NCBI GenBank assembly: GCA_045594425.1
Contig: JAZNYK010000007.1
Coordinates: forward strand, 151,765 to 215,764
Length of the DNA: 64,000 nt
Source of the DNA: Clostridia bacterium
Lineage (GTDB): Bacteria > Bacillota > Clostridia > Christensenellales > UBA1242
Reading direction: 5' to 3'
The position numbers and the translations under genes are program-made. Positions 18,009 through 21,786 of the stretch are shown here, in pieces; positions within the stretch are counted from its first letter, which is position 1, and each line of letters starts with the position of its first letter. A model generated the notes under the pieces. That model did no database searches. It was given only the letters and a program-made list of their open reading frames with translations, and had not been told where the DNA came from.

Positions 18009-18181
18009 TAGATGCTCTCCAATTTAACATGATACTAATTTTACACATCAAATATAACACAAAATTTTTAAAATTCAAAACATATATGGTGATTTTGCCC
18101 AAATTAAATTCTTGCGTTTTGATTTTGCAGTGTGATATACTTTCTTTGTGCTTATTAAAAGCAAATTTTATGAGGTGAATT

Positions 18182-18874
18182 ATGAATATTTCAAAACACG
18201 TAGAAAATATGTGCCCCGTAGCAAAGGGTGCAAATCACAAATCCGCCCCAATTCCAGAAGAGGGTCAATGGATTACAGCGAAAGAAATCAAAGATATTTC
18301 TGGTCTTACCCATGGTGTGGGAAGATGTGCTCCACAACAAGGTGCTTGCAAACTCACTCTCAATGTTAAAAATGGTATCATTGAAGAAGCGCTTGTTGAA
18401 ACAATTGGATGCTCTGGCATGACACACTCTGCAGCAATGGCTTCAGAAATCTTGCCAGGAAAAACTATCCTTGAAGCACTCAATACCGACCTTGTTTGTG
18501 ACGCTATCAACGTTGCAATGCGTGAACTTTTCCTTCAAATTGTTTACGGAAGAACACAATCAGCATTCTCTGATGATGGTCTTGAAATCGGTGCTGGCAT
18601 GGATGACCTTGGAAAAGGCCTTTGCTCACAAGTTGGAACAAGTTATTCAACAAGACTTAAAGGTTCTAGATACCTTCAAATGGCTGAAGGATACATCACA
18701 AAACTCGCTCTTGATAAAAACAATGAAATCATTGGTTACGAATTTGTTAACATGGGCAAAATGATGGAAGCAATCAAAAACGGCGTTGATGCTAATGAAG
18801 CCCTTAAAGCAAACCTTAAAACATATGGAAGATATGCTGAAGCCGTTAAGTATATCGACCCAAGAAAGGAGTAA
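18182..18874 (+). CDS. NifU/IscU-like domain protein with a C-terminal extension
   Basis: 230 aa. Cys pattern GRCAPQQGACK, IGCSGMTHSAAMASE, LVCDAIN resembles the IscU scaffold N-domain. SD GAGGTG. The stop lies 3 nt before the next gene. Confidence 0.7.
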   Translation: MNISKHVENMCPVAKGANHKSAPIPEEGQWITAKEIKDISGLTHGVGRCAPQQGACKLTLNVKNGIIEEALVETIGCSGMTHSAAMASEILPGKTILEALNTDLVCDAINVAMRELFLQIVYGRTQSAFSDDGLEIGAGMDDLGKGLCSQVGTSYSTRLKGSRYLQMAEGYITKLALDKNNEIIGYEFVNMGKMMEAIKNGVDANEALKANLKTYGRYAEAVKYIDPRKE

Positions 18875-18877
18875 GTT

Positions 18878-19873
18878 ATGGTAAATTTCGAAGGTAAAGA
18901 AAAAAGAGAGGCATCTATCAACGCTTGCCTCAAAGAATATGGTATTAAAAATTTAGAAGAAGCAAGAGAAATTTGTCTTGCTGCTGGCATTGACGTTGAA
19001 GCAACTGTAAAAGGTATTCAACCAATCTGCTTCGAAAACGCTGTTTGGGCATACACACTTGGCACTGCCCTTGCAATCAAAAATGATTGTCATTCTGCTG
19101 AAGAAGCCGGCAAATGGATTGGTATTGGACTTCAAGCATTCTGTGTTCCTGGTTCTGTTGCTGACCACAGAAAAGTTGGTCTTGGACACGGCAACCTTGC
19201 TTCAATGCTTTTAAATGAAAAAACAAAATGTTTCTGTTTCCTTGCAGGACATGAAAGTTTTGCCGCTGCTGAAGGTGCTATTGGTATTGCCTTAACTGCA
19301 AACAAAGTTAGAAAAGAACCACTCCAAGTTATCCTTAATGGTCTTGGAAAAGACGCTGCTTACATCATTTCAAGAATTAACGGTTTCACATATGTTAAAA
19401 CTGAATATGATTATGCAAATGCAAAACTTAACGTTGTTAGCCAAACAGCATTCTCTGATGGCGACAGAAGCAAAGTTAGATGCTATGGTGCAGACGATGT
19501 TAGCGAAGGTGTTGCAATCATGCAACATGAAAGCGTTGACGTTTCAATCACTGGTAACTCAACCAACCCAACACGTTTCCAACATCCAGTTGCAGGAACC
19601 TATAAAAAGGTTTGCACAGAAACAGGAAAAGCATACTTCTCTGTTGCTTCTGGTGGTGGCACAGGTAGAACACTCCACCCAGACAACATGGCTGCAGGTC
19701 CTGCTTCTTATGGTATGACAGACACCATGGGAAGAATGCACTCAGACGCTCAATTTGCAGGTTCTTCATCAGTTCCAGCACACGTTGACATGATGGGTCT
19801 TATTGGTATGGGCAACAACCCAATGGTTGGTGCATCTGTTGCACTTGCTGTTGCAATTGGCTCAAGAAAATAA
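18878..19873 (+). CDS. GGGtGRT family protein (function unknown)
   Basis: 331 aa containing the literal family motif SGGGTGRTLHPDNMAAGPASYGMTD. SD GGAG. Confidence 0.8.
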   Translation: MVNFEGKEKREASINACLKEYGIKNLEEAREICLAAGIDVEATVKGIQPICFENAVWAYTLGTALAIKNDCHSAEEAGKWIGIGLQAFCVPGSVADHRKVGLGHGNLASMLLNEKTKCFCFLAGHESFAAAEGAIGIALTANKVRKEPLQVILNGLGKDAAYIISRINGFTYVKTEYDYANAKLNVVSQTAFSDGDRSKVRCYGADDVSEGVAIMQHESVDVSITGNSTNPTRFQHPVAGTYKKVCTETGKAYFSVASGGGTGRTLHPDNMAAGPASYGMTDTMGRMHSDAQFAGSSSVPAHVDMMGLIGMGNNPMVGASVALAVAIGSRK

Positions 19874-19884
19874 TTTATACAAAT

Positions 19885-19916
19885 AAAAAAAGACTTCACA
19901 CCTGTGAAGTCTTTTA
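19885..19916. terminator. bidirectional intrinsic terminator
   Basis: A-run, AGACTTCAC (19891-19899), loop ACCT, GTGAAGTCT (19904-19912), T-run. Lies between convergent genes. Confidence 0.85.
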
Positions 19917-21680
19917 ATTTTGCCCATTTTGTCTATTTTGAAGATTCCATACTTCTTCAGCAGCAATTCTGAAAGCGTTGCTAGATTTTGCATCAAACCA
20001 ATCACTCGCCCTCTTTACGGTTGGCTCAACCTTTTCGTTAACATATCCAATAATTTTGCTTTCAGGATAACCTTGTGCCTGCAAAATTCTTGCATAGGCT
20101 TGATAATAATCTTCTAGTTTCACAATCGGCGAATTTAGTCTTATGTCTTGAATCATATTTGCAATGTTTTTTCTTTTAGTAAAACAATATAACATTCTTG
20201 GAATGTATGAATCATCAGCAACAGTTTTGTAGCAATTAAACAATTCTTCAATGCCAAGTGGTTCAACTTCTGAAACATCATTGCCATATTTGTTTGCAAT
20301 ATAGTTGTTGTGTTCTAACCTTTTTGCAATCTCATAATCTTTGTCAAATCCAGAAATTTCCGCTAAAATTGCAGGTTTTCTAGAAACAATATACTTTTCT
20401 ATCTTGTTCTCTGGAATGTGGTTAAATTTCAAAATAACGGTTTGCATATAAAGTTTGATTAACTCGTTGCTATAATAGACTAAATTGCAATCATCTAAAG
20501 ACAAATCTGCTTTTTCAACTGCACTTGCAACCTTTATATCACCAAACACTTTCATAAATTTTGATGTTGCATAGTCTGCACACTCATTTGTTAAATAAGC
20601 AAATTCTTTGCCAGTTAAAAACTTTTCATAAGAAAGTTCATCTTTATACTGCGGATATGCCTTCATAAAAAATTCTAAATAACCAGCCATAAATTCATCA
20701 TCAAAGGCATCAAAAATTTGTTTATAGTTATCACCAACAAGTGCTTCCGTGTTTTGATAAAGAAACTGCAAAAAGTTTTCTTCGTCAAATGTAAACGACT
20801 TTTTCATATCCTTAACATCATCAACATTAACGGCCGAAAGCAACATTGTGTTTCTGCTTTGTGAATGATATAAAACATCACCCTTTTTTGTGGTTGTTTT
20901 ATGCAATTCATCAGAATCATTGCATGGGTCGCAAAACACAATTCCATCAAACCCATACTTGGGGTCTTTTAAATAAACCATAACATTGTTATGAAGTTCA
21001 TCTTTTCTATGACCTTTTGTTCCAATGTTAATATAAAGCCATTGAATTTCGGAATCAATCCCCAGGCCAGCAAGCAACCCACACAACACTTTTGCATGAG
21101 CAGCACAAACAAAATATTCATCGGTTAGTGAAGATGTTAAAAGCCTTGATTGATACCAGTTTTTTTGATGTGTGTCATTTTTGTCGTTATACCAAAACTG
21201 TGACGCAACATCGTATGCCATCAAATACTCTTCAAATGGTGATAAGCCTAGTGATTTGATGTATTGAACTTGTGTGTTGATTAATTCATTTGCTTGAATA
21301 GAATCAGATAATGAAAAATCATGAAATTTCGCATGATATTTTTCAGAAACCACCAATTTTGCTGACTGTGGAAGCGTGTATTCAAGGTCAATCAATCTTT
21401 CAAGTTCATCAGTAGAAAGAACTCTGGTTGCCGATTTTAAAAAAGGTTGAGATGAATCAGGATTAAGTGTAACCAAAGAAAAAGTATAATCGTCTATTCC
21501 CGCTTGTTTTAGAATTTGCATACACTCATGTGCATAAGAAACAAACTCTTCATCAACATAAGGAATTTCAAATCTAAAACAAACACCAGAATCATTTGCT
21601 GTTAGACTAGATATTCGATTATAAGTTTTTTGGTCTGCAAGGTCCCAAACATTAATATTCCTGACTTTTCTTTTATTCAT
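19914..21680 (-). CDS. hypothetical protein with a transglutaminase-like Cys-His-Asp core
   Basis: About 588 aa. Start at ATG 21678-21680, 5 nt after AGGTGA. YFVCAAHAKVLCGLLAGLGI ... ELHNNVMVYL ... VFCDPCND resembles the papain-like transglutaminase core (C ... H ... D). No signal peptide. Confidence 0.55.
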   Translation of the reverse strand: MNKRKVRNINVWDLADQKTYNRISSLTANDSGVCFRFEIPYVDEEFVSYAHECMQILKQAGIDDYTFSLVTLNPDSSQPFLKSATRVLSTDELERLIDLEYTLPQSAKLVVSEKYHAKFHDFSLSDSIQANELINTQVQYIKSLGLSPFEEYLMAYDVASQFWYNDKNDTHQKNWYQSRLLTSSLTDEYFVCAAHAKVLCGLLAGLGIDSEIQWLYINIGTKGHRKDELHNNVMVYLKDPKYGFDGIVFCDPCNDSDELHKTTTKKGDVLYHSQSRNTMLLSAVNVDDVKDMKKSFTFDEENFLQFLYQNTEALVGDNYKQIFDAFDDEFMAGYLEFFMKAYPQYKDELSYEKFLTGKEFAYLTNECADYATSKFMKVFGDIKVASAVEKADLSLDDCNLVYYSNELIKLYMQTVILKFNHIPENKIEKYIVSRKPAILAEISGFDKDYEIAKRLEHNNYIANKYGNDVSEVEPLGIEELFNCYKTVADDSYIPRMLYCFTKRKNIANMIQDIRLNSPIVKLEDYYQAYARILQAQGYPESKIIGYVNEKVEPTVKRASDWFDAKSSNAFRIAAEEVWNLQNRQNGQN

Positions 21681-21786
21681 AAATCTCACCTAATAACTCT
21701 ATAAAAAGTATATCATAAGAAATATATACAATTCAAGACCATCTTAAAAATGTATACCAAAAACCTCGTAACTTCAAATAAAATAA

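Follow-up and report, generated by a model that had tools for sequence, protein, structure and literature searches.

A NifU-like/GGGtGRT gene pair as a candidate for the missing enolase step of enolase-less Clostridia and other anaerobes

The 64,000-nucleotide stretch of Clostridia bacterium contig JAZNYK010000007.1 analyzed here (the window) contains two adjacent plus-strand open reading frames (ORFs), the first (gene 1; 18182..18874) encoding a 230-residue atypical IscU/NifU-like protein with weak NifU_N, IscU and SufU matches, and the second (gene 2; 18878..19873) a 331-residue GGGtGRT protein with a full-length match to the Pfam family PF14057. The pair belongs to a family that is catalogued yet uncharacterized, and has no characterized or structural relative. 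Its distribution among genomes, its position at two glycolytic loci and its codon usage lead us to favor, if only slightly, the view that in this organism the two proteins form an abundant two-subunit enzyme that carries an iron-sulfur (Fe-S) cluster and performs the enolase step, the conversion of 2-phosphoglycerate (2-PG) to phosphoenolpyruvate (PEP). A broader proposal, for which we see the chances as evenly balanced, is that the pair represents a new glycolytic Fe-S 2-phosphoglycerate dehydratase without homology to enolase, composed of an IscU-derived subunit and a subunit of new fold, widespread in anaerobes of many phyla, and that it would explain the enolase-less bacteria of the gut and rumen.

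To our knowledge, enolase is regarded as universal. That Butyrivibrio and other bacteria of the rumen and gut lack it has been a puzzle since 2010, and both a survey from 2018 covering more than 30,000 genomes and a review from 2024 state that no substitute for it is known. Enolase-less genomes are far from rare in the samples used here, making up 20% of a Clostridia sample and 59% of a sample of the window's own order, and the pair supplies one specific, very conserved two-gene unit as a named candidate for the 'missing enolase'. If the proposal is right, the central pathway of sugar breakdown would gain a new enzyme, metabolic reconstructions of gut and rumen microbiomes would be corrected, the iron regulation and high abundance of a protein recorded as 'unknown' in metaproteomes would be explained, and an Fe-S scaffold fold would be seen to have been recruited as a catalytic subunit. 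Should it be refuted, the pair is still among the most conserved and abundant uncharacterized protein pairs of anaerobes.

The gene pair and enolase among genomes

The genome containing the window is 98.8% complete, and searching it for Enolase_C gives no match even at E <= 10; the enolase model TIGR01060 gives only 10.8 bits (E 0.06), which is noise falling within a convergent 591-residue ORF (19914-21689), and identical searches are positive in 14 of 14 control genomes. Phosphoglycerate kinase (PGK), cofactor-independent phosphoglycerate mutase (iPGM) and pyruvate kinase are all present, as is a pyruvate phosphate dikinase (PPDK)-like ORF that ranks third in codon bias, so 2-PG is made and PEP is used without a known enzyme between them. 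The two bypasses usually invoked are entered through mgsA and through Fe-S L-serine dehydratase, and neither mgsA nor the alpha subunit of the dehydratase is found in this genome. The canonical glycolytic operon is dismantled here, with pgk and tpi followed by a small SecG-like ORF (identified by eye) and without gpmI or eno on one contig (C7:234493-237141), and gpmI alone on another (C13).

The relationship between the pair and enolase is apparent in a sample of 399 Clostridia genomes that are at least 90% complete. Both are present in 145 genomes, the pair only in 72, enolase only in 174 and neither in eight (Fisher p = 4e-14, with kinship ignored). The pair is thus found in 72 of 80 (90%) enolase-less genomes versus 45% of those bearing enolase, and enolase is absent from 33% of carriers of the pair versus 4% of non-carriers. 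The 72 genomes with the pair and no enolase span 25 families and 42 genera, and the eight exceptions are explainable: four are fragmented assemblies from genera whose other sampled members have the pair and lack enolase, two belong to enolase-bearing genera, and two are also without PGK.

Closer to the window the pattern is sharper. Its own family is exactly complementary, with three genomes that have the pair and no enolase and seven that have enolase and no pair. Among 251 genomes sampled from its order, both are present in 57-60, the pair only in 144-147, enolase only in 43 and neither in four, such that the pair is found in 144-147 of the 148-151 enolase-less genomes and enolase in 43 of the 47 non-carriers. 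This sample was drawn around a locus (L062, genome G401) whose record is titled 'uncultured Bacteroidaceae bacterium'; it shares genomes with the window's own Clostridia family, as seen from identical enolase contig coordinates, and the taxonomic label therefore appears to be wrong. The Treponematales (121 genomes) served as a prediction test, in which the 14 enolase-less genomes were listed before the pair was searched for. The pair is present in eight of these 14 versus 22 of the 107 with enolase (p = 0.006, again ignoring kinship), and enolase is absent from eight of 30 carriers versus six of 91 non-carriers, an association weaker than that in the window's own order. Taken together, the three samples amount to about 770 genomes, in which a lack of enolase is almost confined to carriers of the pair.

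Two further observations bear on what these absences mean. In a subset of 150 genomes of which 31 lack enolase, PGK is present in 149, and the missing enolases are therefore not a product of general incompleteness. In addition, 69 of the 71 enolase-less carriers retain iPGM, and we know of no other established sink for its product 2-PG in bacterial central metabolism, which favors replacement at the same step over a bypass that leaves the pathway upstream.

Gene order provides a more direct connection at two loci. One genome that is 100% complete and in which no enolase is found (G050, locus L092) has the order gap-pgk-tpi-gpmI-[NifU-like-GGGtGRT] on one strand, and a second locus (L067) has gap-pgk-ispH-tpi-gpmI-[NifU-like-GGGtGRT], likewise on one strand. 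In both, the pair stands where eno does in the canonical Firmicutes operon, gap-pgk-tpi-gpmI-eno. Four further loci have pyruvate kinase within 4 kb of the pair, two of them in genomes scored as enolase-less (G127 and G361) and a third in a genome without an enolase match. The genome with locus L067 (G776) has an enolase match on another contig (C70:2423-3268) that contains a TAA in frame; either gene decay or a sequencing error may account for it, and truncated forms of enolase have been reported in Butyrivibrio.

The two proteins, their conservation and their expression

A first-pass annotation made from the sequence of the window alone described the two genes as a module of unknown function and suggested that their association be examined by genome neighborhood. 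The association proves to be strict. A NifU-like gene lies directly upstream of the GGGtGRT gene at all 78 testable loci of a set of 80, with gaps of -10 to 67 nt, and at all 40 loci of a second set drawn from about 38 Clostridia families. There is no conserved third gene near the pair in either set, and none of the 120 loci has a cysteine desulfurase adjoining it. The neighbors recurring among the 80 loci are tyrS (eight times), pduL (seven) and yigZ (six), the pduL genes encoding a PduL-type phosphotransacylase (PF06130) within 8 kb of the pair (e.g. L023:10775-11704); tyrS and pduL do not recur among the 40 family-diverse loci, where only generic ATP-binding cassette ATPases do so.

The placement of gene 2 in the GGGtGRT family, which the first-pass annotation based on the literal motif SGGGTGRTLHPDNMAAGPASYGMTD in its product, is certain: the motif is present, and the protein matches PF14057 at E 2e-190 (632 bits against a cut-off of 27) over profile positions 1-324 of 327. 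The motif SGGGTGRT occupies residues 258-265 of the 331-residue protein and is invariant in 85 sequences. The gene is single-copy in its genome, and its product is extraordinarily well conserved, the best 120 database clusters being 89-100% identical to it and the homologs from Treponema, Desulfobacteraceae, Planctomycetaceae, Elusimicrobiales and Eggerthellaceae (loci L015, L020, L045, L054 and L070) retaining 72-81% identity. Identity this high across phyla is unusual, and points to extreme constraint, horizontal transfer, or both. When 1.8 billion representatives clustered at 50% identity are searched, nearly all matches are fragments, and among the clean full-length members seen the most divergent still has 53% identity; the family is therefore compact and without visible distant relatives. 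Members elsewhere, such as BT0173-BT0174 of Bacteroides thetaiotaomicron and F502_05012 of C. pasteurianum, have the same full-length family match and the same two-gene arrangement, although B. thetaiotaomicron carries enolase besides its pair whereas the genome of the window does not. Some over-long GGGtGRT and NifU-like database entries (P0241, P0121 and P0123) were considered as natural fusions of the two proteins and rejected; they contain exact internal duplications of 60-170 residues and look like assembly artefacts.

Alignment of 35 pairs identifies C89, C118, six histidines and many arginine, lysine, aspartate and glutamate residues as invariant in the GGGtGRT protein. Its AlphaFold2 model (predicted local distance difference test score, pLDDT, 86; predicted template-modeling score, pTM, 0.87) has a helical bundle at its N terminus and then an alpha/beta domain, with low confidence in the GGGTGRT loop at residues 260-277, as might be expected of a loop that becomes ordered only upon binding something. 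A Foldseek comparison of the model with the PDB gives no match at E <= 1e-3, the best (E 7e-3, TM-score 0.2-0.3) being generic Rossmann-like folds, and a sequence-profile search of the PDB returns only noise.

The relationship of the gene 1 product to known families is much weaker. The first-pass annotation called it NifU-like, with a C-terminal extension of about 110 residues, and proposed that hidden Markov model (HMM) searches would establish the families of both proteins. Its IscU-like character and the extension are both borne out, with a conserved set of cysteines and histidines, and gene 2 falls clearly within PF14057, but the gene 1 product lies below every curated IscU/NifU cut-off. 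It scores 21.8 bits against Pfam NifU_N (PF01592; residues 56-102), just under the cut-off of 22, and 14-28 bits against NCBIfam IscU/NifU models with cut-offs of 92-273 (27.5 against 187.9 for TIGR01999, 22.9 against 192.4 for TIGR03419, and 18.2 against 92.5 for TIGR01994). Matches to IscU, NifU and SufU chains in the PDB are similarly weak (E 5e-4 to 0.1), and the C-terminal 110 or so residues have no Pfam match. Among its best 120 clusters, those of full length (230 residues) are 77-92% identical to it. Six residues never vary across the 35 aligned pairs (C49, C56, C106, H19, H44 and H82), and C77 is found in 34 of them. By eye, C49, C77 and C106 fit the three-ligand pattern of IscU; since the HMM alignments span only residues 44-104 or thereabouts, the equivalence of C49 and C106 is a probable one. 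When both genes are modeled as a read-through fusion, using a paired alignment from 35 in-frame loci (pLDDT 71, pTM 0.76), a fold search with the model finds IscU/SufU only, for the first domain.

The likeness to IscU/NifU scaffolds (PF01592; TIGR01999 and TIGR03419; PDB 4eb5 and 2z7e) is thus a weak one of sequence and fold, confined to residues 44-104 or so of the gene 1 product. Unlike those scaffolds, it has an additional invariant cysteine (C56) and the C-terminal extension, its gene has no adjoining cysteine desulfurase, and it is always coupled to GGGtGRT. These differences suggest that it may be a permanent carrier of a cluster and not a scaffold for transfer. Elsewhere in the same genome a 121-residue NifU_N protein (PF01592, E 8e-26) is encoded beside NifS (C16:125018-126566; L157:1501-3046, minus strand). 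It was considered as proof that a normal scaffold is available, and this was ruled out because it has lost all three ligand cysteines, a single non-equivalent cysteine being kept. The sole other desulfurase found with the genome's NifS as a BLAST query (ORFs of at least 100 residues) sits with thiI. The 230-residue protein may therefore be the only cysteine-bearing protein of IscU type in this genome, in which SUF was not searched for.

Codon usage sets the two genes apart. In a principal component analysis of synonymous codons in 1035 ORFs of the whole 1.28-Mb genome, the GGGtGRT gene ranks fifth and the NifU-like gene 13th on the first axis, which is headed by EF-Tu, EF-G, the PPDK-like ORF, an RNA polymerase subunit, PFL, DnaK, AdhE and ribosomal proteins. 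Within the window, both pair genes share the top values with glyQS and adhE. These ranks support very high expression, and agree with the bias typical of highly expressed genes, resembling that of glyQS and adhE, that the first-pass annotation had noted; its hand counts for gene 2 (TTC 6/TTT 2, AAC 8/AAT 3, GAC 8/GAT 3 and CTT 7/TTA 2) are exact.

Published work describes an abundant, iron-responsive pair. The GGGtGRT protein shows high expression in vivo in diverse chicken-gut anaerobes (PMC11204068) and is present in the rumen metaproteome (PMC7035244). BT0173-74 of B. thetaiotaomicron are down 11-13 fold in low iron (PMC10434189), and F502_05012 of C. pasteurianum is among the proteins that differ in abundance under varied iron availability (PMC5395762). 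A transposon screen in B. thetaiotaomicron for loss of glucose-dependent inhibition of the regulator Cur recovered three loci, namely pfkA, an M16 peptidase locus and BT0173-4 (bioRxiv 10.64898/2026.04.10.717545). Literature that names GGGtGRT assigns it no biochemical function, and with codon bias and reports of in vivo abundance and iron response in hand, the earlier description of an abundant and uncharacterized system holds.

A possible iron-sulfur dehydratase and its alternatives

How the two proteins might perform the enolase reaction can be outlined. The IscU-like subunit would keep an Fe-S cluster permanently on its conserved cysteine and histidine set, with no transfer, and the GGGtGRT subunit would bind the phosphorylated substrate through the glycine-rich GGGTGRT loop and its invariant arginine, lysine, histidine, aspartate and glutamate residues. 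Water would be eliminated as in Fe-S hydro-lyases, with an iron of the cluster serving as Lewis acid toward the C3 hydroxyl. Where a genome has both, the pair would serve as an iron-dependent isoenzyme to the magnesium (Mg)-dependent enolase; Fe-S and metal-only isoenzymes coexist, as fumarases A and C do. Iron regulation, coexistence with Mg-enolase, the extreme expression signal and the conservation all fit this reading, and iron dependence together with abundance fits an Fe-S enzyme under a load of glycolytic scale.

The resemblance to enolase (EC 4.2.1.11; PF00113/PF03952, TIGR01060) consists of the proposed reaction, the complementary phyletic pattern, the slot after gpmI at two loci and a codon bias of glycolytic level. 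In contrast to enolase, the pair has two subunits, probably depends on an Fe-S cluster and not on Mg, and has zero sequence or fold similarity to it, so that the analogy is functional only; enolase is not among the Pfam or Foldseek matches of the pair, and Pfam gives only PF14057 and NifU_N. With aconitase, class I fumarase, Fe-S L-serine dehydratase and dihydroxy-acid dehydratase the pair would share its proposed chemistry, iron dependence and oxygen sensitivity, with no homology detected.

Several observations weigh against an enolase function. Of the 217 carriers in the class sample, 145 (two thirds) have enolase as well, and with both present in most carriers the pair is not simply a replacement for it. 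Six Treponematales genomes, whose completeness was not reported, have PGK and neither enolase nor the pair; they amount to 6.6% of non-carriers, near the 4% background in Clostridia. The association statistics ignore phylogeny, and it is the family count and the pattern within the family that carry the argument. Synteny with the eno slot is seen in only two of 120 loci, no other neighbor is conserved, and there is no fluoride riboswitch in the window. Among 151 Clostridia genomes, one RF01734 locus was taken per riboswitch-bearing genome and 30 were examined, none of which adjoins the pair; a riboswitch pattern scan of the 120 pair loci gave a single unconvincing match (L090) and none that is credible. 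No likeness to known hydro-lyases emerges from Pfam, NCBIfam or the PDB fold search, and the four conserved cysteines of the NifU-like protein could fully ligate a cluster and leave no open iron site, with three histidines also available. Experimental reports count here too. Kelly et al. (2010) reported 'only a very low level' of enolase activity for extracts of the enolase-less B. proteoclasticus B316, a result that tells against the proposal unless B316 has the pair and its extracts were assayed in air; oxygen sensitivity is a possible reason for near-absent activity in aerobic extract assays. Insertion mutants of BT0173-4 grow normally on glucose and have a 2-fold effect on the reporter (bioRxiv 10.64898/2026.04.10.717545); normal growth is predicted by redundancy with enolase, and fits a non-glycolytic role equally well.

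In one alternative the pair serves in a route around enolase, where it would catalyze another reaction at the triose-phosphate level (such as forming pyruvate by removal of phosphate or water from 3-phosphoglycerate or 2-PG, after which PPDK would make PEP) or an essential redox or cofactor step. The complementarity data are equally compatible with this, the PPDK-like gene has one of the three strongest codon biases in the genome and could supply PEP from pyruvate, and the near-absence of enolase activity from B316 extracts agrees with it. We nonetheless regard such a route as unlikely, given that iPGM is retained in nearly all enolase-less carriers and lies directly upstream of the pair at L092 and L067, both of which point to 2-PG as the substrate, that pyruvate kinase is also kept in the window's own genome, and that a route skipping PEP would cost fermenters the ATP of the last glycolytic step. 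Database names such as 'iron-sulfur cluster assembly scaffold protein' reflect another interpretation, in which the pair is a module for assembly, storage or repair of Fe-S clusters and its link to enolase is indirect. The IscU-like fold and sequence signals of the gene 1 product and the iron regulation in B. thetaiotaomicron agree with such a module, and the loss of ligand cysteines from the NifS-linked NifU, with the other desulfurase found sitting with thiI, keeps it alive and counts against a catalytic role. Yet it leaves unexplained why enolase is lost almost only in carriers and why the pair occupies the eno slot; the desulfurase expected of a scaffold is missing next to the pair, the gene 1 scores are far under the IscU/NifU/SufU cut-offs, sister genomes of the same family live without the pair, and a codon bias at the level of EF-Tu is unusual for an assembly factor. 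We consider it rather improbable.

The remaining alternative is that the association with enolase is a by-product of shared ancestry and niche, the carriers being gut and rumen anaerobes with reduced genomes in which the pair has some unrelated function, either housekeeping or regulatory. In its favor, genomes of related organisms are not independent data, the Fisher tests take no account of kinship, most carriers keep enolase, and most loci have no glycolytic synteny. Such a coincidence would nevertheless have to extend to complementarity within a single family (three versus seven genomes), across 25 families and into a second phylum, the PGK control shows no general gene loss, the pair stands in the eno slot at two loci, and a screen for glucose signaling found its locus alongside pfkA. 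We judge this the least probable of the three, and an Fe-S enzyme for the enolase step is the reading that we prefer.

Operon layout and signals

The two ORFs have exactly the coordinates given in the first-pass annotation, and its further claims of an upstream region belonging to the pair and of a strong bidirectional terminator (placed at 19885-19916) also stand. Gene 1 is preceded by a plus-strand Shine-Dalgarno sequence, GAGGTGA (18172..18178), 3 nt ahead of its ATG at 18182. The junction of the genes consists of the TAA stop codon of gene 1 (18872-18874), GTT, and the ATG of gene 2 at 18878, a spacing of 3 nt, and the Shine-Dalgarno sequence of gene 2, AAAGGAG (18865..18871, plus strand), lies within the 3′ end of gene 1, which suggests translational coupling. 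A consensus scan finds no plus-strand promoter upstream of gene 1; a weak TTGCGT-18-TATACT at about 18112-18141 was spotted by eye.

Downstream, folding and the flanking A- and T-runs identify an intrinsic terminator hairpin at 19888..19915, with a 12-bp stem that follows an A-run and precedes a T-run (-16.5 kcal/mol, z = -7.3 versus shuffled sequences). It is bidirectional and common to the pair and the convergent gene, the 591-residue ORF on the minus strand (19914-21689), which has zero Pfam or NCBIfam matches. The upstream neighbor, encoding a YigZ/IMPACT protein and followed by RecX, is divergent, and with the terminator closing the other end the pair constitutes a self-contained operon.

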